From positions 1 through 14,634 of the forward strand of contig JBKAGE010000083.1 of NCBI GenBank assembly GCA_046290225.1: a DNA stretch of 14,634 nt. Direction: 5' to 3'. Origin of the DNA: Bradymonadia bacterium (GTDB lineage Bacteria; Myxococcota_A; Bradymonadia; UBA7976; UBA1532). This document shows positions 1,218-14,634 of the stretch, piece after piece (the first letter of the stretch is position 1; each line of letters starts with the position of its first letter). The position numbers and the translations under genes were made by a program. The notes beneath the pieces are model-generated. The model did not search any database and was not told the DNA's origin. It saw only the letters and a program-made list of their open reading frames with translations.

Positions 1218-3515
1218 ATGTTCGATCTCGTCGGCCGTGTGGTCTGGCTGTACTGCCTGTGGGGGCTCGGATGCGCGTGGGCGCAGCAGAGTCGACCGGG
1301 GGAGATCACCCAACAACCAGAGGTCGTGGCGGCTGTACCCGCCTCACGCAGCAGCTTGAGCGGCGTCTTGCTGCGCAAGGGGATGCGCTCACCTCTGGTG
1401 GGTTTGATGGTGAAGGCCAGCTGGGGGAAAGGGGCATTCGAGCACGAGGCCTTCACGGATGAGCATGGGCGGTTTGTCATCGAGGGGCTGCCGCCGGGCG
1501 CCCTCGAGCTCGTGGTCGAAGAGCCAGGCTTCGAAGTGTTGAAGGATACGTTCGAGCTCGGCGAGGGTCAGATCTTGGAGGTGCAGTACTTCCTCGGGCC
1601 CCAAGGCTTCGAAGAGACCGATATGGTCATCGTCGGGCAGCGCGTCCGCCGCGTGGTGACGGTCCATCAGATCACTGCAGAAGAGGCGCTCACCGCCCCA
1701 GGCACTCAAGGGGACATCCTCAAGGCTGTGCCCAACTTGCCCGGCGCCGCGCGGCCACCCTTCGGATCGGGCGATCTGGTTTTGCGGGGCGGAGGCTATA
1801 CCCAGGCGGTCATCGAGGGGCAGGACATCCCATATGCATTTCACTTCGGTGACATCCGCAGCACCATCAGCGCCGATCTCGTTGAGACACTGGCTGTGTA
1901 TCCGGGGAACTATGGTGTGGAGTTCGGCCGGGGGAACGGCGGCTTCGTCGACATTCAGCTGAGACGACCGAGCATGGAGGGCGTGCACGGAAACGTCGAC
2001 GTGAACCTCTTCGACGCCGGCGCTTTCGTCGAAGGGCCCATCGGCACGGGGGGCTCACTCGCCGTGGGCTTTCGGCGCAGCTACATCGACGTGTTGTTTC
2101 CTGTGGTCATGCCCAAGGAGGCCGTGGAGGACTTTCGCACCGCTCCGCGATATTTCGACGGTCAGATGCTCTACGACCACCGGTGGTCAGGGCACACCGT
2201 GCGGTGGTTCACCTATGGCGGTGGCGATCGCCTCGTGCTGCTCATCGACGAGCCCTCGGAGAATGATCCCGGCCTGCGGGGGCGTCTTGACAACCGCGTG
2301 GAGTGGGTGGGCAGCTTCGTCGACTGGGAAGCCACTGTCGCCGAAGGCGTCAGGCACACCGCCTCACTCGGCTACCTGTATACACACAGCCGGCAGAGCC
2401 TCGGCGACGACCTGCGGTTGGACTTCGATCTACATCAGGTCACGTTTCGAGACGCGTTGTCGGTGAGGCTGAGCGAGGCGGTGACGTGGCGGGTGGGGCT
2501 CGATCACAAGGTGCTCTATACCTGGGCCGACGTGCTCGCGGTGTTCCCGCCGAAAGAAGGCGACGCACCGCCGCCGCTCTCCGCCGGCGATCCGCGTCAG
2601 ATCGAGCGCACGTTCTGGTCCTGGGAGCCGGCCCTGTGGACCGAAGCTGAGCTGCGGTGGGGCGATCTCACGCTGATCCCTGGTCTGCGCGTCGATCACT
2701 ACAGCCTCACCGACGAGATCCTGTTTCAGCCTCGCTTGACTGCACGCTATCGAGTAAATGGCGCCACCACGCTCAAGGGGGCTGTGGGTCAGTACACTCA
2801 GCCGCCGGATCTCGACGAGGTGGATGACACGTTCGGCACCTCAGCCATCAACGCCGAGCAGAGCTTGCACACCTCTCTCGGTGTTGAGCGCCGGTTTGGC
2901 GATCACCTCTCCGTCGACGTGACGGGTTTCTATAAAGGCTTCGATCAGCTGATCACCGCGGACAGAGATGATCCCGACACCCGATATCGGAACCAGGGGA
3001 TCGGCAGAGCCTATGGCTTGGAGGCGCTGATCAGGTTCGGGGGTCATCCCCGGTTCAATGGATGGCTGGCCTATACACTGCAAAGATCCGAACGGAGAGA
3101 CAGGCCAGGGGTGGCCTGGCGGGCCTTCGACCAGGACCAGACCCACAACCTCGTGCTGGTGGGGCGCTATCGGTTGACCCGGGACTGGTCCATCGGCGGA
3201 CGCTGGCGCTATGTGACCGGCAACCCGCAGACCGAATACGACCGCGCCATCTTCGACAGCGACAATGACGTGTACGTGCCCATCGTGGCCGGGCAGACCA
3301 ACACGGGCCGTCTACCGGCCTTTCATCAGCTCGACCTGCGCATCGATCGTCAGTGGCTCTTCGACACCTGGCAGTTGACCGCCTACCTCGACCTGCAGAA
3401 CGCCTACAACCGCGCCAACGCCGAGGCCTTTACCTACAACTACGATTACACCCGGCGAGACACCCTCGGTGGCTTGCCCCTGCTGCCATCATTTGGCCTG
3501 AGAGGTGAGTTCTGA
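1218..3515 (+). CDS. TonB-dependent outer-membrane receptor with N-terminal carboxypeptidase-regulatory-like domain, 765 aa
   Basis: GGAGG RBS at 1206-1210. Signal peptide, then TDEHGRFVIEGLPPG (CarboxypepD_reg-like), plug motifs DILKAVPNLPG, LVLRGG and YPGNYGVEFGRGNGGFVDI, barrel motifs PGLRVD, QPRLTARY, GRAYGLE, LDLRID and YLDLQNAYNR, and a terminal Phe (GLRGEF). Confidence 0.93.
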   Translation: MFDLVGRVVWLYCLWGLGCAWAQQSRPGEITQQPEVVAAVPASRSSLSGVLLRKGMRSPLVGLMVKASWGKGAFEHEAFTDEHGRFVIEGLPPGALELVVEEPGFEVLKDTFELGEGQILEVQYFLGPQGFEETDMVIVGQRVRRVVTVHQITAEEALTAPGTQGDILKAVPNLPGAARPPFGSGDLVLRGGGYTQAVIEGQDIPYAFHFGDIRSTISADLVETLAVYPGNYGVEFGRGNGGFVDIQLRRPSMEGVHGNVDVNLFDAGAFVEGPIGTGGSLAVGFRRSYIDVLFPVVMPKEAVEDFRTAPRYFDGQMLYDHRWSGHTVRWFTYGGGDRLVLLIDEPSENDPGLRGRLDNRVEWVGSFVDWEATVAEGVRHTASLGYLYTHSRQSLGDDLRLDFDLHQVTFRDALSVRLSEAVTWRVGLDHKVLYTWADVLAVFPPKEGDAPPPLSAGDPRQIERTFWSWEPALWTEAELRWGDLTLIPGLRVDHYSLTDEILFQPRLTARYRVNGATTLKGAVGQYTQPPDLDEVDDTFGTSAINAEQSLHTSLGVERRFGDHLSVDVTGFYKGFDQLITADRDDPDTRYRNQGIGRAYGLEALIRFGGHPRFNGWLAYTLQRSERRDRPGVAWRAFDQDQTHNLVLVGRYRLTRDWSIGGRWRYVTGNPQTEYDRAIFDSDNDVYVPIVAGQTNTGRLPAFHQLDLRIDRQWLFDTWQLTAYLDLQNAYNRANAEAFTYNYDYTRRDTLGGLPLLPSFGLRGEF

Positions 3516-4369
3516 TGTGTCGAATGCGCTGCTTGATGGCGGTGGTGGTGCTCATGTGGGGCTGTGACGAGGACTTCGAGGCTCGCACCCTGCTCGAAGG
3601 CTATCGCGTGATGGGCATCTCCGCAGATCGGCCAGAGGTGGGCCTCGAAGACACGGTCACCCTGCACGTGCACGACTTCGACACCGAGGGTCGACCGCCG
3701 ACGTACCGCTGGTCGGTCTGCATGGCCTCAGTGGGGGCAGAGAACAACTTTGAGTGTGTCGACGAGACGTGGCGTTTCTCGTTGGAAGGGGCGCGCACCC
3801 TCACCGTGGACTTCGAGCGGGTGGGCGCCGAGTCGGTGAGCCTGAGCTCGATCTATGAGCAGGCGTTGAGTCGTTACGGCGGGATGCCCTCGGCCACCGG
3901 GATCAAAGATCTGGAAGAGGGCTTTGACGTGCTCTTTACGCTCAACAGCGGTCCAGAAGGTGGCCGAGAGGTCGAGACCGTGAAGCGGGTGACGGTGAGA
4001 TCCCCGGCTCGAGAAGAGGGGCCCAATACGAACCCTGAGGTCTCGCGCTTTTCGGTGGAGGCCGTCGCACGGGCCAGCACGTCTGTGGAGTTGGCCGTCG
4101 AGGTGACCGATGGCTCGGCGCAGCCCTACGTGCTGGAGCGGTATGGCGAAGACGGAGTGGTGGTTGAGTCGAGTGATGCCACAGAGGAGCTGGCCTATAC
4201 CTGGTACACCACAGCTGGTGAGACCGATCCGCCCGTGACCTTTGGGGATGTGCAGCGCACCACATTGAAGCTGCCTGCAGAGGCCGGCCTGGTCCGTGTC
4301 TTTGTGACGGTGCGGGATGGCCGCGGCGGGCTCGATGTGGCGGAGGCGGAGATCGAGGTGAGGCCTTGA
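3515..4369 (+). CDS. Putative lipoprotein partner of the TonB-dependent receptor, 284 aa
   Basis: Starts in a TGATG overlap with the receptor stop. Lipobox-like VLMWG-C followed by DEDF. Beta-rich acidic sequence with C-terminal VFVTVRDGRGG, an Ig-like strand motif I recall from myxobacterial lipoproteins downstream of such receptors. Confidence 0.8.
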   Translation: MCRMRCLMAVVVLMWGCDEDFEARTLLEGYRVMGISADRPEVGLEDTVTLHVHDFDTEGRPPTYRWSVCMASVGAENNFECVDETWRFSLEGARTLTVDFERVGAESVSLSSIYEQALSRYGGMPSATGIKDLEEGFDVLFTLNSGPEGGREVETVKRVTVRSPAREEGPNTNPEVSRFSVEAVARASTSVELAVEVTDGSAQPYVLERYGEDGVVVESSDATEELAYTWYTTAGETDPPVTFGDVQRTTLKLPAEAGLVRVFVTVRDGRGGLDVAEAEIEVRP

Positions 4370-4390: not shown

Positions 4391-6868
4391 CTACCGCCGG
4401 CGGCGGAGCAGTCCGGCGCCGAAGAGCAGCAGTACCCACGCCACCGTGCTGCGGCCACCAGCGGCGTTGCAGCCGCCCTCGGCGGTGCCGTTGTCACCCA
4501 CCACCTGCGCCATGGGGGGCGGCGGCGTGCTGCCGGGGTTGTCCGTGTCGCCGCCACCAGGGTTGTCGCCCCCTTCACCGCCGCCGTTGCCCGCGTTGTC
4601 GTTGGGGTCGAGGACCGGAGGCTCCGGGGGATCTGTGTAGTCGCCCACGCACTGCAAGGTATCGTTCACGATGGCACAGGCGGTGCCCGAGGGGCAGTCG
4701 ACGTTGCGGCACGGATCGCCGACGCAGGCGCCGTTCAGACACCTCTCGTCTTCGCCACAGTCCATACCGGCGCAGGCGTCGGGGCGGCACTCGCCGCCGA
4801 GGCAGGCTTCACCGGCGGGGCACTGGAAGCCGCCACATGGATCGGGCTGGCATGCACCGTCGATGCAGCTCTCGTACAGCGGGCAGGAGAGCGCGGCGCA
4901 GGTGTCGACACACTCACCGGCGCGGCAGAACTGATCACCACCACAGCTCATGCCGTCACAGGGATCCGCCTGGCAAGTGCCGTTCACGCAGGCCTGGTTG
5001 CCCTCACAGCCGTTCACGGTGCAGTCGCCGGGGCGGCAGCTGCCCGCCACGCAGGTCTCGCCGGCGCCGCAGTCGACGCCGGCGCAGGTGTCTTCACAGC
5101 GGCCCGTGGTCTCGTCGCACACCGCCGAGCCTTCGCAGACCACCTCGTAGCAGCGGGGCACGCAGAGGCCGCGGATGGGCTCGCAGAAGGTGCCTTCGGT
5201 GACGCACTCGTTGTTCTGGCAGGGCTCGCGACACTCACCGCGATCACAGATCGTGTCGCCGGGGCAAACCGGATCAGAGGGGAAGTCCTCGTCGACGGTG
5301 CCATCACAGTCGTTGTCTTCCCCGTCGCAGACCTCTTCCGAGGTGCCACAGAAGCCGCAAGCGTTCAGCGTACCCTCGTCGATGGCGCCATCACAGTCGT
5401 CGTCTTCGCCGTTGCACACCTCTTCGATGGGCTGCAGATCGGGCACGCAATCGAAGTAGCCGTTCTCGTCGCACTCCTGCATGCCCAGGGCGCAGCGGCC
5501 CGGCAGGCCTGTGGCGCACACCTCCGGGGGGATGGGCTGGCCGAGATCGTCGATACAGGGCTCGCCGTCACAGACGTCGCCGCGGCCATTGCCGTCGCTG
5601 TCGAGCTGATCGGGGTTGGGCACCTCGGGGCAGTTGTCGCAGACGTCGCCGAGGCCGTCACCATCGCTGTCGGCCTGATCGGGGTTGGGCACGCCGGGGC
5701 AGTTGTCCTCTTCGCCGCAGAGATCGTCGCCGTCCTCGTCGACGCAGGCGCCGCCGAGAGAGCGCTCGAGCACCAGAATCGAGAAGGCCGTCGCGGAGCC
5801 CGGCTCCCAGTTGTTCGGTGCTGCCCAGCCACCGTTCGCCGCCTGCAGGTTGGTGAGCTGCCAGGCGAAGTCGTAGTACCAGCCTGCGGGCTCCTCGGGG
5901 TAGCCGTCGCCGGCGGGGTTCCGTTGCCCACCGATGGCGTGGGCGTCGAGGCCTCCGTTGGGGTTCTCCCCGCTCACCTCGAGGCCCTTCGCCGCAGCCC
6001 AGAGGTAGTAGTAGTAGCTCTGGTTGAAGCGCTGGTTGATGTGGCGATCGTAGGTGTAGTTGTTCTGCAGCCAGCCCAGGGTCTGTTGCACCTCGGCGCT
6101 GCTCACGTCGAGACCTGCGAGTCGGTAGGTCCAGAGGCCCGAGGCGGTCATCGAGCTGGAGCTGCCGGAGTTGTGCCCGGGGCGGTAGTTGTGGCCGCCG
6201 TCGAACTGCCGGGTGTTGTTCACGAAGCCCACGGTGCGGTTGAGGGTGTTCGCCGCCCCTTGAGAGACCTGCTCCGCGGCGCTCAGGCCCGCCATGGCGA
6301 ACTGGGTCGTGGACAAATCACCGTCGAAGTCAGGGAAGTCGTAGTTCCAGCCACCCTGGTTGGTGCCGGCGTTCCCCTGCATGCTGCGCAGGGCCTGCAC
6401 ACCAGACTCCAGGGCTTGCCGGGCACCGACGAAGCCGCCCACGTCATCGGGGCCGCCGGTGAGCAGATAGACCGAGATGGCCATGAGGTTGGAGCCCGTC
6501 ACATAGGAGTTGGGCACCCCGCCCTGCAAGCCATCGTCCTCCTCGATCATGTAGCGGATGGCGCTGCGCACCCGCTGCTGATCATCAGGAGACATGTTCT
6601 CGTACCCCAGAGGCTCTGCGTTCCAATCCGACGAGGCCCGCTTCTCGAGAAAGCACAGCGTGGCGAGGCCTGTAGCCTCTGGCGTGGGCCCGAAGCCGCC
6701 GTCACCCCGCTGCTGACCACGGAAGTACTGCAGCCCACGCTCGATGGACTGGTTGACCCGCTCGCCGAAGGGGGTGACCTGAGCCTCTGCGTCGCCGGGC
6801 GTGCCCAGAGTGACGCTGCCCAGGGCAAAGAGCCCGGCGGCGAAGAGTGAAGGGGTGATGCGGATCAT
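4391..6868 (-). CDS. MYXO-CTERM cell-surface protein, 825 aa: prenyltransferase/squalene-cyclase-like alpha/alpha barrel, TSP3-like repeats, MopE-related metal-binding repeats and Cys-rich stalk
   Basis: Start moved to ATG 6868 (GGAGG RBS at 6874-6878). Signal peptide ends AEA-Q. QW-like motifs [22 protein letters not shown] and QAANGGW. Two DNCPxVPNPDQxDSDGxGxGDVCD repeats and two E-VC(N/D)GEDxDCDGxxDE repeats. Many CxxxxCxxxxxCxxGxC repeats, a Pro/Gly linker, and C-terminal GGCNAAGG, hydrophobic helix, RRRR. Confidence 0.9.
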
Positions 6869-6902
6869 GGGGACCTCCGATGCGCTGACCGGAAGGTGGA
6901 TG

Positions 6903-6918
6903 ATCAAGTCTCGTGCCA
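6903..6918 (-). promoter_or_regulatory. Candidate sigma-54 (-24/-12) promoter for the MYXO-CTERM gene
   Basis: Minus strand reads TGGCACG-agac-TTGAT against consensus TGGCACG-N4-TTGCW. The -24 box and spacing are perfect, with one mismatch at the -12 C. It lies 35-50 nt upstream of ATG 6868. Confidence 0.45.
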
Positions 6919-6961
6919 CCTGGGAAATCTACGGATTATGGGGCTTCGAGGCCCCTTGGGG

Positions 6962-7126: not shown

Positions 7127-8236
7127 ATGCGCATCGGCGTACCTGCAGAGGTCAAGAATCACGAGTACCGGGTGGGGCTGGTCCCCGCCGGGGTACGGGA
7201 CATGGTCCGCCACGGCCACAGTGTCATGGTGCAGAGCGGCGCCGGGATCGGCAGTGGCATCACCGACGAGATGTACGCTGCTGCCGGGGCTACCCTCGTC
7301 GAAGACGCCGCCACCGTCTGGGGCGAGGCCGAGATGATCTGCAAGGTCAAAGAGCCTGTCGCCAGCGAGTACGATCTCATCCAGAAGGGTCAGATCATCT
7401 ACACCTACCTGCACCTCGCCGCGGTGCCCGAGCTCGCCCAGGTGCTGCTCGACAAAGAGGTGGCTGGTGTGGCGTACGAGACCATCGAGACCGCCGATGG
7501 CCGGCTGCCCCTGCTGCAGCCCATGAGCGAGGTCGCAGGCAAGATGGCCACCCAGGTGGGTGCACGAGGCCTCGAGAAAGAGGCCGGCGGCAAGGGCATC
7601 TTGATGGGCGGCGTGCCTGGCGTGCGCCGCGCCCGGGTGGTGGTCCTCGGCGGTGGCGTCGTGGGCATCAACGCCGCGAAGGTCGCCGTGGGCATGGGCG
7701 CCCGCGTGAGCATCCTCGACATCAACGTCGCCCGGCTCAACTACCTCGAAGATGTGTTCATGGGCAAAGTCGACACGGTGTACTCCGACTCGGAGACCCT
7801 CGTGGAGAGCCTCAAGTGGGCTGACCTGGTCATCGGCGCCGTGCTCGTCGCCGGAGCTCGGGCCCCCACGCTGGTGACCCGGGAGCACCTCAAGCTCATG
7901 GAGCCCGGCTCGGTGCTCGTCGACGTCGCCGTCGACCAGGGTGGCTGCTTCGAGACCACCCACCCCACCACCCACGAGGCGCCGACCTACATGGTGGACG
8001 ACATCCTGCACTACTGCGTGAGCAACATGCCCGGCGCCGTGTCGCGGACCAGCACCTTCGCTCTGAGCAACGTCACCCGGCCTTACGGCCTCGCGCTGGC
8101 GAACAAGGGCGTCGAGAAGGCCTGCGCCGAAGATCCCGCCCTGGCCAAGGGCCTCAACACCTTCCGCGGTGAGTGCAGCCATCCGGCGGTGGCGGAGTCC
8201 CTCGAACTGACCTACACCATCCCCCCGCTGGGCTGA
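7127..8236 (+). CDS. ald: Alanine dehydrogenase, 369 aa
   Basis: [21 protein letters not shown]-terminus, [29 protein letters not shown], Rossmann [18 protein letters not shown] and [16 protein letters not shown] are all AlaDH signature segments. The length is typical. Confidence 0.98.
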
Positions 8237-8270: not shown

Positions 8271-9683
8271 ATGACATGCCTGATGGGGGTCTGGCGCTCA
8301 GCCCTCACCTGCCTCGCCGCCCTCGCGTGCCTTGCCCAGCCTGCCCTCGGCCAGATCAGCATCAACGAAGCAGAGCTGGAGCGCATCCTCCAAGAAGACG
8401 TGGCCCCCGTCATCGGCGACGTCGATCTGCTGCTCCTCGAAGGCCCCAAATATCTCGCCAAACGCTTGCCTGCCATGCAGGCCGCCGGTGACTTCGGCGG
8501 CCAGATGGATCTGCTCACCCCCGGCGACTTCAGCCTCGGCATCGGGGTGCTCGGTGGGGTCTTCTTCGGCTTCGACGACGAGGTGGGCAACCGGTTCCAG
8601 AAGTTCCCCAACAAGCTGCCCGAGCCCCTGCCGATCCCTGCGGGGGTGATCTCCGGGCGTGTCGCTGTGACCCCGGACTTCGAGCTGGCAGGGCGCTATG
8701 GGTTCTTCCCGAACTTCGAGGTGAAGTCGAAGGGCTACCTCATCAAGGGCACCACCAGCATCTGGGGTCTCAAGGGGCGGTATCGTCACAGCAGGGCCAA
8801 AGGGTGGACGCCCGCCTTCATCGGCTCCGCGGGCTACAGCTACTTCACCGGTTTCCTCAACGTCGGCCGCGACTTCAGCTTCAATCTGACCCCGATCCGG
8901 AACAACGAGTTCAATCAGACGGTGAACGAGGCCTTTGGCCGGAACGTGCTCGGCGACGGCGAGGAGGTGAACTGGCGGGCGTTCTTCTCCGGTGCCCCCA
9001 TCATCGGCTGGGACATCCATCAGATCAGCCTTGAAGAGCGCATGGTCTGGGACGTGGGCTTCTGGCATCCCTATCTCGGCGCCGGCGTGGATTACGCCTG
9101 GGGCCACGTAGATTCAGGCACCGATCTCGAACTCGACGCCCGCCTCAGCGGTCCGGGGCCCCTCGTCGAGGCCTGGCAGAACGCCAACAACGGCAGCCCC
9201 AAACTCCTCGACATCATCCCCAGGCAGCGACGTACGCTGGTCACCGAGTCCCCCCGAACCCTCGGCGGTCGGGCCATCGTGGGTACCGAGTTCGACATCG
9301 GCTCGGTGGTGCGCTTTGCCCTCGGTGCTCAGTACGACGTGGGCACCGGGAGCATCGCGGGCGGCTTCACCTTACGCTTTGCCAGCATCACGCCCCCTCC
9401 ACCACCGCCACCTCCGCCAGAGGTCAAGCCTCGAACGAAGCGCCCCAAGAAGGGGGCCCGGCGAGGTCAGAGGCCTGGGAAATCAGCCAAGAAGGCACCG
9501 AAGAGTCGAAAGGCGGGCAAGCCTGCGCAGAAGCTGCGCCCAGGGCAAAAGGCAAAGAAGAAGACGCGAAAACGCACGCCGGCCAAGGGGAAGCGCCCCA
9601 AGAAGTCGTCCAAGAAGAAGCCGCCGAATCCAAAGTCCTCGAAGAAGAAGCGTCGACAGCGACAGAAGAAGGCAGAGCCATGA
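8271..9683 (+). CDS. Exported protein, probably an outer-membrane beta-barrel, with C-terminal polyproline and K/R-rich tail, 470 aa
   Basis: GGAGGAG RBS and a signal peptide ending PALG-Q. Amphipathic strands include FELAGRYGF, IWGLKGRY, GSAGYSYF, HPYLGAGVDYAWG, IVGTEFD, FALGAQY and GGFTLRF, followed by P9 and an 85-aa basic tail. GC3-biased codons. Confidence 0.75.
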   Translation: MTCLMGVWRSALTCLAALACLAQPALGQISINEAELERILQEDVAPVIGDVDLLLLEGPKYLAKRLPAMQAAGDFGGQMDLLTPGDFSLGIGVLGGVFFGFDDEVGNRFQKFPNKLPEPLPIPAGVISGRVAVTPDFELAGRYGFFPNFEVKSKGYLIKGTTSIWGLKGRYRHSRAKGWTPAFIGSAGYSYFTGFLNVGRDFSFNLTPIRNNEFNQTVNEAFGRNVLGDGEEVNWRAFFSGAPIIGWDIHQISLEERMVWDVGFWHPYLGAGVDYAWGHVDSGTDLELDARLSGPGPLVEAWQNANNGSPKLLDIIPRQRRTLVTESPRTLGGRAIVGTEFDIGSVVRFALGAQYDVGTGSIAGGFTLRFASITPPPPPPPPPEVKPRTKRPKKGARRGQRPGKSAKKAPKSRKAGKPAQKLRPGQKAKKKTRKRTPAKGKRPKKSSKKKPPNPKSSKKKRRQRQKKAEP

Positions 9684-10138
9684 CCGTGCGCCTCATCGTC
9701 TGGGGGAGTCTGATCACGCTGATGGGATGTTCGGAGAACCCCCTCGATCCCGACGAGATCAACGGCGGCTCAGTGATCAACGAAGAGGTCACTGGGGGTG
9801 CAGGCGGAGGCGTCGAGGCCAACTGCGCCAATACCTGCAACGTGTTGGCGCAATGCCAGGGCGAGCTCGGGCTGCAACTCGCCGACGACTGTGAGACCAA
9901 CTTCTGCCTCAACACCCTCGATGATGGAGCTCGACAGTGTGTCGTGGGAGCAAATCAGTGCGTCGAGGCCGGCGAGTGCATCGGCATCACCTGCGACGCG
10001 GTGTGTGAGGTGTTGTTGCAGTGTGGGGCGCAGGTGACGGCAGAGGAATGTCCGGATCTGTGCAATCAACAGATCGCGGTGCCGTCGAGGACCTGTGTGT
10101 TGCTCTCCAACACCTGCGACGAGGTGGCAGGCTGTTGA
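9680..10138 (+). CDS. Cys-rich lipoprotein with two 8-Cys repeats, 152 aa
   Basis: ATGA overlap with the upstream stop. Lipobox LMG-C, an acidic/Gly linker, then two repeats of C-x3-C-x5-C...C-x3/4-C-x10-C-x6-C-x5-C. Confidence 0.85.
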   Translation: MTVRLIVWGSLITLMGCSENPLDPDEINGGSVINEEVTGGAGGGVEANCANTCNVLAQCQGELGLQLADDCETNFCLNTLDDGARQCVVGANQCVEAGECIGITCDAVCEVLLQCGAQVTAEECPDLCNQQIAVPSRTCVLLSNTCDEVAGC

Positions 10139-10155: not shown

Positions 10156-13100
10156 TCAGCGGACGTAGATGTAGCCGTTGGTCCAGATGTAGACGTCTTC
10201 GAACTGGCCGCCGCTCTCCGTGCCTCGGATGGTGAAGTTCGAAGAGCTGATGCCCAGGTTGTAGATCTGCCCGTTGGCGGGGAAGGTCCGGGTGCAGCCC
10301 GTGCAGCTGGTGTTGTCGGCGATGCCCTCGTCCACGAAGCTGGTGGTGGGGGTGGCGTTGTCCATGGAGCCGAAGGCGATGTCGCCCCAGCCGTCGTGGG
10401 TGGTGGACCAGTTGTGGTTGGTGAGGTTGGGGCTGCCTGAGGGGCCCATGTCCCAGCTGCCGCTGCTGGGACCGTCCACCACCTGGAAGTTCTCGAGGAA
10501 GAACTGGCTGTAGTTGAAGGGCAGAGTGGTGGACAAGGCCGTCTCGGTCTCGCTGTTGCAGCTACCCGTCTCGCCCATGTGGATGCGGTTGTTGCTCCAA
10601 CGCGCGATGCTGCAGTTGTTCAAGTAGTCGAGCTCCTGGTTGGGGAACGTCTGCATCAACGCAGGGGTCAGGCGGGTCCAGCCGCCATTGTCCGTGGTCA
10701 TGTCACAGGTGACGATGAAGGGGGCGTTGCCGCCAGGGCCATCAGGGTCGATGGTGTAGAGGCCATCGCCGATGTTGTCGACGTAGGTGTAAGGCGCCAC
10801 CGAGGGGTTGCGGTACTCGTTGCAGCTGGTGGCGTAGGTGTTGTCCGCCCACTCACGCGCGCCCGTGTCGATGTCGATGAGCAGACCCGTCTCACAGGCA
10901 CCCGCGTCGCTGCCACCGGCGCCGATGTTGGCCGCCACGTCACGGCAGCCGCCAATGGTGACCTGGCCACAGACCTGGGTCTCACACACTGCCACGCCGA
11001 GCTCTACGCCCTGGCGGATGGTGCTCTGCTCTCCAATGGTGGTCTCGGGGAAGATGATGACGTCGTTCTCGATGGTGACGTCGTCGCCCACATCGGCGCT
11101 GTCGCGAATCAGCACGTTGGTGCCGATGTTGACGTTGTTTCCGTAGGTACTCCGGGGCCACAGGCGGCTGTTGTTCCCGAGCGCGAGGTCGGTGCCGATG
11201 GTGTTCTGCTCGTCCAGAATCACATCGTCGCCGATGCTGGCCCGTGCGCCGATGGTACTGCGGAACAGGATGGTGGTGCGCTCGCCCACGGTGCTGTCGG
11301 CCCCGAGGGTCACGCCATCGTAGAGAGCAGAGTCATCGTGAATGGTGCAGCCCGACTCCACAGTGACGAAGATGCCCAGGGTGGTGTCGTGATGCATGTG
11401 GCCGTTGTCGCCGACGCTGCTCTGGTTCCCGATGAACACCCGGTCTTCCAGAGTCACGTTGTTGCCCAGCGAGCCGCGAACCTCAGTGTTCTCACCGAGG
11501 GTGGCGTCATCGCCCGCGGCAGCACCAGAAGCAAACTCAGCACCAGCGCCCATGGCGAGGCTGTTGCCGATGGTCACGTAGCTGCGCACGATGCCGCCAG
11601 CACCGATGATCGCCTCATCGCCGATGACGGTGTTGCCTTCGACGGTGGCCCCAGCGCCGAGGCTCAGGGTGTGGCCCACGCTGGTGTTGCTGCCGATGCT
11701 CGCGCCTGCGAGCAGGTCGGCGCTGGCGCCCACCTGGCTGTTGTTCCCCAAGGTTGCGCCGTCAGCGAAGCTCGAGCCGTCACCAACGCGACCGAGGATG
11801 CCGACGCTGGTGTTGTTGCCGAAGCTGCTGCCCGCTCCAATGTTGGCCTTGCTGCCAAAGAAACAGTTCGTACCTGCGGTGACGTTGTCACCCAACTCTG
11901 CCAGTACCTCCAACGAGCAGCCCGTGCTCAGGCCCACGTTGGCGCCCAGCCGTACGCCATTGCCCAGGCTGGCGCCGTCGGGTACCACTGAGCCGGCGCC
12001 GATCACAGCGCTGTTGCCCACAGTGCCGTTCACCGTGGCGCCATCGCCGATGTTGGCGTAGGTACCGATGACCGCGTTGTCACCGATGACGATGTCGTTG
12101 CCGAGGGTAGCAGTGGGGTCGATGTCGGCGTTCACGCTCACGCAGGCGTCGCCGTAGCCATCACCGTTGTTGTCCGTCTGATCGGCATTGCTGACAGTCA
12201 CGCAGTTGTCGACATCCTGACAGATGCCATCACCATCGGCGTCATTCGTCGCGTCGTTCGCGCACACATCACAGGCGTCACCCAAGCCATCCGCGTCAGT
12301 GTCTGTCTGAGTCGCGTTGGGGGTCAGGGGGCAGTTGTCCACCTCAGTGGCCACGCCGTCATCATCGTCATCTATCGAGAGCAAGGGCGTGGGCTCGGAG
12401 AGCGCCACCACGGTGCCATCACCGAGATCGAGGTAGGGCAGGTTGTTCCCCATCTCGTTGGCGTTGTCCCCGAGGTTGTTGGAGTTGCCGAGGCCGGTTT
12501 GACCATAGGCACCATAGCCCCAGCACTTCTGACTGCCATCAGTGAACAGCGCGCAGCCGAAGTAGTGCCCCAGGTTCATGTCGGCCACCACCAGGGGCTG
12601 GCCCTGGCCATCAGTGCCGAAGTCCATGTAGGGCAGGTTGTCGCCCATCTCGTTGGCGCTCTCGCCGATTCGGACGTTGTTGCCGTACCCCTGACCGAGT
12701 GAGCCGTAGTAGTTGATGCCCCAGCACTTGGTGCCACCGTTCTCGAGCAGAACACAGTTGTGGTAGGCGCCCGTCCAGAGGTTCTTCACCGTGAGCGGGT
12801 TGCCCTGGCCATCGGTGCCGAAGTCGACGTAGGGCAGGTTGTCGCCCATCTCGTTGGCAGCATCACCGCGGTTGTTGGTGTCACCATAGCCGAGGGTGCC
12901 ATAGCCGCTGTGCCCCCAGCACTTCACACGATCGTTGTCCAACACCGCGCAGAAGTTGTGGATGTTGTTGCCGATGTATTTCGCCGTGCGGCCAGTGCCC
13001 AGGTCGGTGAAGGCAAGGTTGTTGCCCATTTCGCCGGGATTGTCACCCCGCCCGGTGTTGTTGCCGTGACCCAGCTCACCGTGACCGTTGTAACCCCAAC

Positions 13101-13785
13101 ACTTCACCCGGCCATCTTCCAGAATGGCGCAGCTGTTCAGGTAGCCCGCCGTCACCTGGCTCGCGAGCAGTGGCTGGCCGTTCTCGGTGCCGAGGTCGAC
13201 ATAGGGCAGGTTGTCGCCCATGTTGCTGGCGTTGCTGCCGTAGGTGCTGGTGTTGCCCTGGCCCAGGTTGCCCCAGCTGCCCTGACCCCAGCACTTCACC
13301 CTGCCGTTATCGAGCACCACACAGTTGTGGTAGAAATCTGTGTCCAGGAAGGTGGCGGTTCGCCCTGTGCCGAAGTTGATGGGCGGCAGGTTGTTCCCCA
13401 TCTCGTTGGGGCCATCACCGCGATTGCTGGTGTCGCTCTGGCCCAGGCTGCCGTAGCCACCGTGCCCCCAACATTTCACCGCCCCACTCTGCAACCTCGC
13501 GCACGCGGCGTAAATCGACGTGTTCACCTCTACAGCGGGCTCGCCGAGATCGACATAGGGCAGATTGTTCCCCATCTCGTTGGCAGCGTCACCGCGGTTG
13601 TTGGTGTCGCCCTGACCCATCTGGCCGTGACCGCTGTAGCCCCAGCACTTCACCTGACCATCATCAAAGACGGCACATGTGAAGTAGTCATGGTTGGCGT
13701 GGGCGACAGAGGCGCCCAGAAGCGTCAACGTGCCTGCCCCGAGCAGGGTCTTCAGAGCGTGGCGAATGAGATGACGATGCTTCAT
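10156..13785 (-). CDS. Secreted mosaic protein, 1209 aa: RCC1/BLIP-II-type 7-bladed propeller, TSP3-like Ca repeats, long hexapeptide left-handed beta-helix and fibrinogen-like (CDMxxxGGGW-type) C-terminal domain
   Basis: GGAGAG RBS and signal peptide ending AHA-N. Seven C-x(9)-CWG..G.LG..EMG.NLP..D.G repeats. DNCP..PN..Q.D.D.DG.GDACD repeats. About 400 aa of [ILV]G-x-x-x-x hexapeptides. SCNEY...[11 protein letters not shown]...[11 protein letters not shown], ending YIYVR. Confidence 0.92.
10900..12135 (-). repeat. Intragenic hexapeptide repeat tract (left-handed beta-helix)
   Basis: Continuous 6-residue periodicity, for example [24 protein letters not shown] ... [30 protein letters not shown]. 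Boundaries are approximate. Confidence 0.88.
12405..13695 (-). repeat. Seven intragenic RCC1-like repeats (about 60-67 aa each)
   Basis: KCWG occurs seven times. Repeats 1 and 5 share [21 protein letters not shown] and are visibly similar at DNA level (about 13545-13655 versus 12820-12927). Confidence 0.9.
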
Positions 13786-13886
13786 CAGCGTCTCTCCATG
13801 TGTAGATGTAAGCTTGCTGGCTCACTGTAAGGTGCAGGGGGGCGCATGACCACACAAAAACACAATGTGGGTAGACCGGGTGGGCA

Positions 13887-13948: not shown

Positions 13949-14634
13949 TCAGCGGAGCCACATAGCGATGGAGCTGACGAAGTAATGGCTGCCGCCGTCG
14001 ATACGCCAGTAGACCTGGCCGGAGCTGCTGCCTGCGAAGCTCATGTAGTAGCAGCTTCGGAACCACCAGCCGGAGCGGAAGCTGGAGCCACAGTTGCTGC
14101 TCCACTGGTCGTTGTCGCGGTCGTAGGTGCTGAACGCGTTGCCACCCTGATAGCTGGAGAAGCGACCATCGTCGTTGGACTGTGCGGTGGTGGTGACGGT
14201 CATGAAGTAGTTGGTGGACTCATCACCGACAGAGAAGTTGGCGTACTCGTGGGTGCGGACGTTGGTGCGCACGTCGAGCTCGTTGTTCCCGAGGGCGGTG
14301 AGGGCATGAATGCGGTCATTGCCGAGCCAGCCGAGGTTGCCGTTGGCGGTATCGCCGAAGCCTGCTTTGTAGGTGGCCCAGTTCTGGTGGAAGTTGTTGA
14401 AGTTGGTGGTCTGGTTGTTGAGGGCCAACAGAGTCCAGCCGCCACCATCAGTGGTCATGTCGCAGTAGGCCTGGAACGCGTCGAGGCCACCGGCACCGTC
14501 AGGGTCGAGCCAGTAGGTGCCGTCCTGGTCCGCACCTGAGTTGAGGGCCTCAAGGCAGTTGATTGCCGCGCCCTCGGGGGTGAGGCCGTTGACGCAGCTG
14601 CCGTCGAGCAGGGCCTCAGCCCCCATGTCAGCGT
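13949..14634 (-). CDS. 3' part (5'-truncated) of a protein ending in a canonical fibrinogen C-terminal (FReD) domain
   Basis: The frame is open to the window edge (..ADMGAEA), so ATG 14626 is probably internal. Motifs: NCLE..DGTYWLDPDG, YCDMTTDGGGWT, NWATYKAGFG, WLGNDRIHALT, YANFSVGDE..NY, FSTYDRDND...NC, GWWFRSC, ending MWLR. Confidence 0.92.
   Translation of the reverse strand, partial: ADMGAEALLDGSCVNGLTPEGAAINCLEALNSGADQDGTYWLDPDGAGGLDAFQAYCDMTTDGGGWTLLALNNQTTNFNNFHQNWATYKAGFGDTANGNLGWLGNDRIHALTALGNNELDVRTNVRTHEYANFSVGDESTNYFMTVTTTAQSNDDGRFSSYQGGNAFSTYDRDNDQWSSNCGSSFRSGWWFRSCYYMSFAGSSSGQVYWRIDGGSHYFVSSIAMWLR

Follow-up and report, generated by a model that had tools for sequence, protein, structure and literature searches.

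The window analysed here, a 14,634-nucleotide stretch of DNA from a Bradymonadia bacterium (assembly GCA_046290225.1, contig JBKAGE010000083.1), is one entire contig of an 8.58-Mb genome. It carries the gene for P0001, a secreted mosaic protein of 1209 amino acids (aa), and, upstream of it, the tail of a second gene of the same kind. Both belong to a large paralogous family whose constant element is a hexapeptide-repeat rod.

Build of P0001

The protein opens with a Sec-like N-terminus, as foreseen in the original prediction, which was made from the sequence of the window alone. No lipobox, transmembrane (TM) segment or sorting tag was found in P0001 by sequence pattern and hydrophobicity scan, again in line with that prediction: no hydrophobic segment follows the signal peptide (best 19-residue Kyte-Doolittle mean 1.1), and the C-terminus, GYIYVR without a TM segment, is not the Cys motif, TM helix and basic tail of MYXO-CTERM proteins. 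The seven RCC1-like blades and the TSP3-like repeats expected next are both present, the former as seven KCWG blades (residues 46-420, spacing 58-67 aa; Pfam RCC1_2 x7, 109 bits) and the latter as three TSP_3 matches (29 bits) that would bind calcium.

The rod gives 122 bits with Pfam Hexapep, in ten stretches. It comprises 64 hexapeptide anchors across residues 555-929, equal to 21.3 coils of 18 residues with two four-residue steps, and follows the repeat [LIV]-[GAED]-x-x-[STAV]-x of hexapeptide left-handed beta-helices (LbH), with I, L or V at 55 of the 64 anchors and Gly next in 41. The repeat tract and its length of about 10 nm (10.2 nm at an assumed rise of 0.48 nm per coil) stand as predicted, the number of coils being 21.3 instead of 23. 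In the AlphaFold2 (AF2) monomer model the rod is one continuous solenoid with no helices and a mean confidence score (pLDDT) of 89. The solved structures closest to it by profile are QdtC, LpxD and LpxA (E 5e-20 to 1e-17).

The hand of the rod is less straightforward. In a structure search with both AF2 models LbH chains had the highest or tied Z-scores (12-21), yet the root-mean-square deviation (rmsd) was about 12 A in every LbH row listed, while several right-handed helices superposed at 2-4 A. Both models therefore appear to be right-handed, that is mirror-image, a reading taken from the superpositions and not from inspected coordinates. Foldseek returned only matches of poor TM-score for both models, and the rod's neighbours in an embedding-type atlas stayed below 0.8, which gives a lead only. 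A bias of AF2 toward right-handed solenoids for repetitive sequences has been reported in the available text of PMC12775518, and the sequence is that of a typical hexapeptide protein; for these two reasons a left-handed rod remains likelier, although its hand may truly be opposite to that of its enzyme relatives, as both models suggest.

No column of the alignment of 43 rods exceeds 28% His, and so a conserved catalytic or metal-binding His was not found, although P0001 itself has a local cluster (H796, H798, H799). The NCBIfam enzyme models all score well under their cut-offs on P0001, and catalysis is therefore unlikely. The rod is very probably secreted and non-catalytic, and the proposal that an enzyme fold has been repurposed as a secreted beta-helical rod is upheld by the His columns and by the single confident solenoid. 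One of its three corners is more conserved than the others at exposed non-Gly positions (0.63 vs 0.47 and 0.49; 0/20,000 permutations, in a test that treats hexapeptides as independent although the aligned rods are mutually related) and is also more hydrophobic. The ridge formed by this corner includes the charged and aromatic residues R770, F806, D823, F841, D858, R874, W876, and R878; a continuous ridge is predicted by a three-fold core or by a partner-binding edge. An ice-binding Thr ladder was considered and rejected, as the rod has a single TxT motif. The rod cap has four Cys (C934, C939, C947, and C964), each present in 81-88% of the 43 rods, and its pLDDT is low in the AF2 monomer models.

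The fibrinogen-like tip of the original prediction has been retained in part only. A motif of about 35 residues (1005-1039) is fibrinogen-like: the Fibrinogen_C profile (PF00147) matches residues 1008-1039 with its positions 17-46 of 221 (16.2 bits, cut-off 22), whereas the NCBIfam model NF040941 (GGGW domain, YCDxxxxGGGW) passes with 47.2 bits against a cut-off of 30. A full domain of about 220 aa is not there. The AF2 model of residues 820-1209, built on an alignment of 34 sequences of which three cover the variable part, gives a jelly-roll beta-sandwich for residues ~1030-1209 (pLDDT 82), matching the gingipain cleaved adhesin (Z 8.9, rmsd 3.4, 135 aligned), meprin (Z 8.3), and CBM29 (Z 7.7). 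The whole tip aligns, with weak likeness, to the procollagen C-propeptide (Z 7.2, rmsd 3.9, 171 aligned); 4aej, a structure record met in this search, is titled a trimer. No ficolin or fibrinogen chain is among the 50 tip structure matches listed. In the atlas the nearest clusters (0.94-0.96) have Fibrinogen_C on 12-42% of members. An unrelated protein carries the same type of tip, 54% identical, in fusion with DUF4842, and a viral scan using the tip gave no match.

The truncated upstream ORF (open reading frame) ends in a true fibrinogen domain (PF00147, 129.6 bits) and is 68% identical to residues 936-1163 of the paralogue C82:36569, whose rod ends at residue 949. The tip of P0001 aligns significantly with this domain over 34 residues only. 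Ficolins bear collagen stalks, while P0001 has no collagen Pfam match, its stalk being made of hexapeptides in place of Gly-X-Y. The likeness to ficolins and intelectins is thus confined to the GGGW subdomain and, elsewhere in the family, to four of 32 paralogue tips which, like the upstream neighbour, are full fibrinogen domains (128-147 bits); the P0001 tip goes on as a jelly-roll, in a layout nearer to that of the procollagen C-propeptide. The tip is accordingly not a ficolin domain, and an intelectin identity is not supported either.

Table 1. Features of P0001 and its upstream region in the window
Feature	Position	Strand	Basis
P0001 gene, coding for a secreted mosaic rod protein of 1209 aa	10156..13785	-	ORF list, Pfam, NCBIfam
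Sec-type signal peptide, residues 1-30, ends AHA; no lipobox	13696..13785	-	Cleavage site placed by eye; hydrophobicity scan
Seven-bladed RCC1-like beta-propeller head, residues 31-462	12400..13695	-	Pfam RCC1_2 x7; KCWG motifs; head tree
TSP3-like Asp/Cys repeats, residues 470-549; head/rod exchange zone	12139..12378	-	Pfam TSP_3
Predicted hexapeptide beta-helix rod, residues 550-930; 64 hexapeptides, ~21 coils, single conserved ridge, no conserved His	10996..12138	-	
Cys-rich rod cap, residues 931-965	10891..10995	-	43-rod alignment
Neck and GGGW subdomain, residues 966-1040; variable tip starts beyond	10666..10890	-	NF040941; DNA similarity drop
Variable tip, predicted jelly-roll, residues 1041-1209; common to one paralogue and a DUF4842 fusion protein elsewhere	10159..10665	-	
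Bipartite motif GTGT[AG]G-N19..23-TACA[ACG]T upstream of the gene	13824..13855	-	Putative promoter
Contig-end-cut tail of tandem upstream paralogue: rod-cap end and full fibrinogen C-terminal domain	13949..14632	-	

The paralogous family

Rod-bearing ORFs number 52 in the genome (BLASTP, E<=1e-4; 44 places at E<=1e-30) and are spread over 35 loci, including a tandem run of nine; their stop-to-stop frames make up 2.3% of the genome. The rods of 33 ORFs align gap-free over at least 390 aa, and TSP3 repeats precede the rod in most paralogues. A hydrophobic N-terminus is present in 29 of the 30 members with called starts, a lipobox pattern in none, and none of the 20 MYXO-CTERM matches in the genome lies in a rod-family gene (150 of 285 candidates scored). 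The heads (44, of which 27 are RCC1-type) fall into 12 clusters; PKD arrays, tandem legume lectins, Ig domains, and GGGW domains are among the 22 that were scanned. The tips (32), compared beyond their GGxW motif, form 19 clusters. Fibrinogen_C is met at E<=0.05 in 27 of the 32, but as a strong full-length match in four only; three have COLFI above cut-off beyond the shared motif or twice, one LamG, one a weak F5/8 match, and three no match. The comparison shows a constant chassis, TSP3 repeats with a hexapeptide beta-helix of about 400 aa, bearing interchangeable heads (RCC1 propellers, GGGW domains, PKD/Ig arrays or legume lectin) and tips (fibrinogen, COLFI-like, LamG, jelly-roll or none).

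A tip is present in 29 of the 52 members and lacking in 14, whose last part is the rod; contig ends truncate the other nine. Since 14 of the 43 complete members are tipless, the rod, and not bivalency, is the constant of the family. Bivalency as the defining idea, taken from the original prediction, is thus not supported; in a second lineage, described below, 30 of the 32 ORFs sampled have a rod that begins close to the N-terminus. The size range is wide: three giants, C44:74949-90557, C36:69437-81331, and C77:71967-82577 (5203, 3965, and 3537 aa from stop to stop, with 70, 55, and 41 RCC1 blades, respectively), end in the rod, while C51:43943-45229 consists of a leader, TSP3, and rod only, and the adjoining C51:41684-43738 of a leader, rod, and a P0001-type tip.

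P0001 is itself a mosaic, its head, rod, and tip having three different nearest paralogues. The head is 78% identical to that of C35:178342, whose rod (N/C part) is only 44/67% identical; the rod is 78-93% identical to those of three GGGW-headed genes; and the tip is nearest to that of C51:41684, whose rod is 25/33% identical. In the RCC1 head tree (20 rows, FastTree) P0001 is sister to C35:178342 with support 97, while in the rod tree (34 rows) it groups with five non-RCC1 genes (support 99/97), apart from a 100/98 clade holding the relatives of its head. In sliding DNA windows the nearest paralogue switches at aa ~500-600 and is lost beyond aa ~1050. These similarities show that the family has been shuffled at two places, the junction of TSP3 and rod and the stretch beyond the GGGW motif. 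Recent gene conversion was rejected, as only two pairs share >=97% identity over >=120 nt, both being overlaps of neighbouring stop-to-stop frames.

At 11 of the family's 30 called starts the bipartite motif seen ahead of P0001 is present, at an upstream distance of 68-98 nt. Genome-wide it has 15 matches, 13 of them upstream of rod-family genes, all RCC1-headed, an enrichment that is partly circular, the motif having been derived from these same regions. It may mark a shared promoter; a sigma-70 consensus scan returned 0 promoters. A palindrome overlapping it, YACA-N11-TGTR (window 13850-13870), occurs in 9 of 30 family upstream regions vs 37 of 4014 background windows and could be a regulator site.

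Distribution and known relatives

By RecA the closest named matches of the genome, at 77-79%, are in Myxococcales and Bradymonadia MAGs, which together with its MYXO-CTERM matches places it in Myxococcota and probably in Bradymonadia. A search of 30 relatives at 1e-30 did not find the rod. At locus L103 (G005 C102) of a same-family genome, TSP3 and a short hexapeptide rod close a long protein of Cys-rich 'CPAGxYC' repeats. In a protein search with 8000 matches scored, 35 had E<=1e-30; 27 are apparently from this genome and eight from other assemblies, four of these eight with the same four-part build. The partial member P0024, 71% identical over 61% of the rod, lies on a 2.5-kb contig labelled Phycisphaerales. 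The rod profile run against 1.84 billion representatives gave 31 matches at 1e-30 and 952 at 1e-10; the best 30 of 150 matches listed (three from this genome) have Hexapep in 29 cases and TSP_3 in 11, along with PKD, lectin, cadherin, EGF, protease or propeller domains. A GTDB-wide pattern scan found 41 loci, all 23-38% identical across part of the rod. One encodes a Myxococcales protein whose N-terminus is leader-like and whose C-terminal hexapeptide tract is short; at another an LpxD-like enzyme gene sits next to a BamA-like one (names by eye). None of 197 pattern matches in a JGI metagenome scan was confirmed. No RNA data set was listed as holding the sequence, and the single DNA run, with 7 of 30 bins covered, was not counted as evidence of habitat.

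Seven of 400 other genomes of the phylum match at 1e-25 (four candidates scored in each); the matches in two of them, G027 and G029, are simple-repeat frames and were left out of the membership. At 1e-12, G104 and G250, of one genus in another Myxococcota family (loci L101-L134), match at least 116 times (with 150 of 166 candidates scored) and 86 times, respectively, figures that include a few housekeeping enzymes and are not copy numbers. Twenty regions of G104, hand-picked from the upper list, hold 32 ORFs with rods of 127-295 aa. In 30 of them no more than 170 residues of the frame come before the rod, as a rule a leader followed by a short Asp/Cys motif, and two of the ORFs have a lipobox pattern. 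The passengers (31 scanned) include Fibrinogen_C (seven), glycine-rich families (five, one of them phage gp38 just below cut-off), FG-GAP (two), and RCC1, TLDc, Ig, and Hexapep (one each), with no match in 13. The chassis thus appears sporadic yet explosively expanded at least twice, which does not imply that the expansions were independent.

By sequence P0001 belongs to the hexapeptide LbH superfamily (LpxA/LpxD/GlmU, gamma-CA, YdcK, eIF2B epsilon, and dynactin p27), with which it shares the hexapeptide register, profile matches, and the top or tied Z-scores. It nevertheless stands outside the enzyme families; its rod is predicted to be exported, has ~21 coils and no conserved His, is fused to adhesin domains and massively paralogous, and has AF2 models of the opposite hand.

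The closest analogy, proposed earlier and now backed by the large shuffled paralogue family, is with the mosaic adhesive trimer (MAT) fibres of Bdellovibrio bacteriovorus, which, in the available text of Caulton et al. 2024 (PMC10769870), comprise 21 paralogues of ~1000 aa forming a ~55-nm fibre, 13 of the 21 with an S74 chaperone, and have a conserved ~130-aa beta-rich domain directly after the signal peptide and intertwined triple beta-helices. As far as that text goes, both are large exported paralogous sets, mosaics of a constant module and swapped binding tips, without a classical anchor and in a predatory-type host; the rod family differs in its hexapeptide solenoid and TSP3 chassis, in the variation of both ends, and in its 52 to >100 copies. 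MATs being compared by description, a MAT-type ~130-aa N-domain is absent from P0001, where an RCC1 blade begins at residue ~31, and from a family whose heads form 12 clusters. The S74 chaperone (PF13884) has 0 matches in the genome (control positive in 2/14); it is likewise missing from eight of the MATs. The searched supplements of PMC10769870 make no mention of hexapeptide, LbH, fibrinogen or RCC1.

Trimeric autotransporter adhesins (YadA/BadA/UspA1) are modular surface adhesins containing beta-solenoids, and UspA1 is found in the rod structure search (Z 11.4, rmsd 10.5). P0001, however, has no C-terminal beta-barrel anchor, and the YadA anchor PF03895 was not found in P0001 or the genome (control positive in 1/14). 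A search for TpsB/ShlB gave no match, with a control that was equally blank. The variable Tips of the Myxococcus Kil/Tad pilus carry interchangeable domains for prey contact (PMC12075869), and hexapeptide, RCC1, and fibrinogen are not mentioned in the main text of that paper; in the rod family, by comparison, there is no pilin N-terminus and the genes stand alone. A secretin gene with two T2SSF-family genes at C57:55699-60528, in a layout that suggests a Tad (Kil-like) cluster, lies near the family gene C57:45649. The rod family is not described in the available parts of PMC9957290 and bioRxiv 2023.11.21.568195, nor was a description found in the literature searched, which covered few subscription papers. 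It represents a known strategy on an apparently undescribed chassis, and its significance lies in the family rather than in the single protein.

Proposed function, alternatives, and neighbouring genes

The best reading of P0001, with a probability of about 0.58, places it in a library of exported recognition proteins that has expanded in its lineage and whose members would be trimeric and grip foreign surfaces. Export would proceed by Sec, followed by type II secretion of the folded, disulfide-bonded protein; secretin and T2SSF-family genes occur together at C34 and C57. Three rods would then pack side by side via the conserved ridge, like enzyme LbH domains, into a stiff ~10-nm trimer whose three heads and tips would bind glycans or surface proteins avidly. 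The library would broaden the range of surfaces that a Myxococcota cell can grip, prey first and then substrates, much as the MAT fibres of Bdellovibrio do. Predation by Bradymonadia is contact-dependent in the available text of PMC11509652. The parts of this reading differ in strength: a recognition function of the library is highly probable, a trimeric rod, argued by analogy, is reasonably probable, and foreign or prey targets are only slightly favoured.

Several observations weigh against it. The trimeric LbH enzymes behind the trimer argument have the hand opposite to that of the right-handed AF2 models; the Z-scores of the tip, 7-9, are middling, in a range that the search tool calls common; the rod, at ~10 nm, is short beside the ~55 nm given for MATs in the text cited above; and P0001 has no anchor by which to stay on the cell. 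No neighbour gene family recurs at more than 4 of the 35 rod loci, and the lifestyle of the host is taken from its class. Moreover, a search of 27 same-family genomes at 1e-20 did not find the rod (one of them has four matches to a longer profile at 1e-12), and among 61 sampled genomes of the order of G104 only G104 itself has more than one match; for these reasons the rod does not seem to be core predation machinery.

The strongest alternative keeps the oligomeric chassis and assigns it self targets, the proteins being released or matrix-bound lectins for biofilm cohesion or kin recognition, or a variable coat against phages or grazers. The lack of a membrane anchor fits it, two binding ends suit cross-linking, the giants with 41, 55, and 70 blades agree with it, patchy and explosive expansions fit an arms race as well as they fit prey range, and over ~40 aa, though no further, the TSP3 repeats are like those in the cohesion protein MtsC. 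With so many complete members tipless and most sampled members of the second lineage headless, however, cross-linking is not general, and 19 tip clusters in one genome seem excessive for a matrix scaffold. Self targets are clearly less probable than foreign ones.

Less probable still is a monomeric rod serving as an export or anchoring tag, its ridge binding an outer-membrane partner, lipopolysaccharide or the secretion machine, with passengers fused at either end. The TSP3 and rod unit is indeed the sole constant, C-terminal in 14 members and N-terminal in the second lineage, the ridge has charged and aromatic residues, and many large extracellular-type proteins elsewhere bear hexapeptide tracts. 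Nevertheless, no partner gene is linked to the rod loci. Most solved hexapeptide domains matched by profile are enzymes, LbH enzymes are known as trimers, and the fibrinogen and COLFI folds found among the tips are trimer-forming. A rod that is still an enzyme, an acyltransferase or gamma-carbonic anhydrase working outside the cell and guided to its target by binding domains, is very improbable in spite of its solved relatives QdtC, LpxD, and LpxA and the His cluster of P0001, given the His content of the columns, the far lower scores of the enzyme models, the helix-free rod model, and the fact that acyl-CoA or acyl-ACP is unlikely outside the cell.

For the recognition of many different surfaces by predatory Myxococcota, the known answers are MAT fibres and Kil tips. 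If the recognition library is real, the rod family would be a third, unrelated solution, in which a lipid-A-type enzyme fold has been recycled as an exported scaffold in ~50 and >100 copies in two lineages; it offers ~60 tip domains and a natural 21-coil hexapeptide rod. A bolder and rather unlikely idea is that TSP3 and rod form a self-contained assembly and display module, an undescribed surface-fibre route, with mixed trimers among co-regulated paralogues, which are conceivable because dozens of such paralogues share a gap-free rod and one ridge. Were this true, ~50-100 genes would yield thousands of head and tip combinations, a bacterial combinatorial recognition repertoire.

Elsewhere in the window, a TonB-dependent-receptor-like gene with a carboxypeptidase-regulatory domain, followed by a lipoprotein-like ORF without a Pfam match, occupies 1218-4369 (+). 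The gene at 7127-8236 (-) looks by eye like one for alanine dehydrogenase, yet has no Pfam or NCBIfam family match, and 8271-10138 (+) comprises a 470-aa ORF with a Pro-/Lys-rich tail and a Cys-rich ORF of 152 aa that looks like a lipoprotein; no family match came up for either. Positions 4391-6919 (-) code for an 842-aa secreted protein with a prenyltransferase-like alpha-toroid (weak Pfam match), TSP3, long Cys-rich repeats, and, by eye, a MYXO-CTERM-like tail; a relative of it adjoins another rod-family gene at C36:232945-234651.

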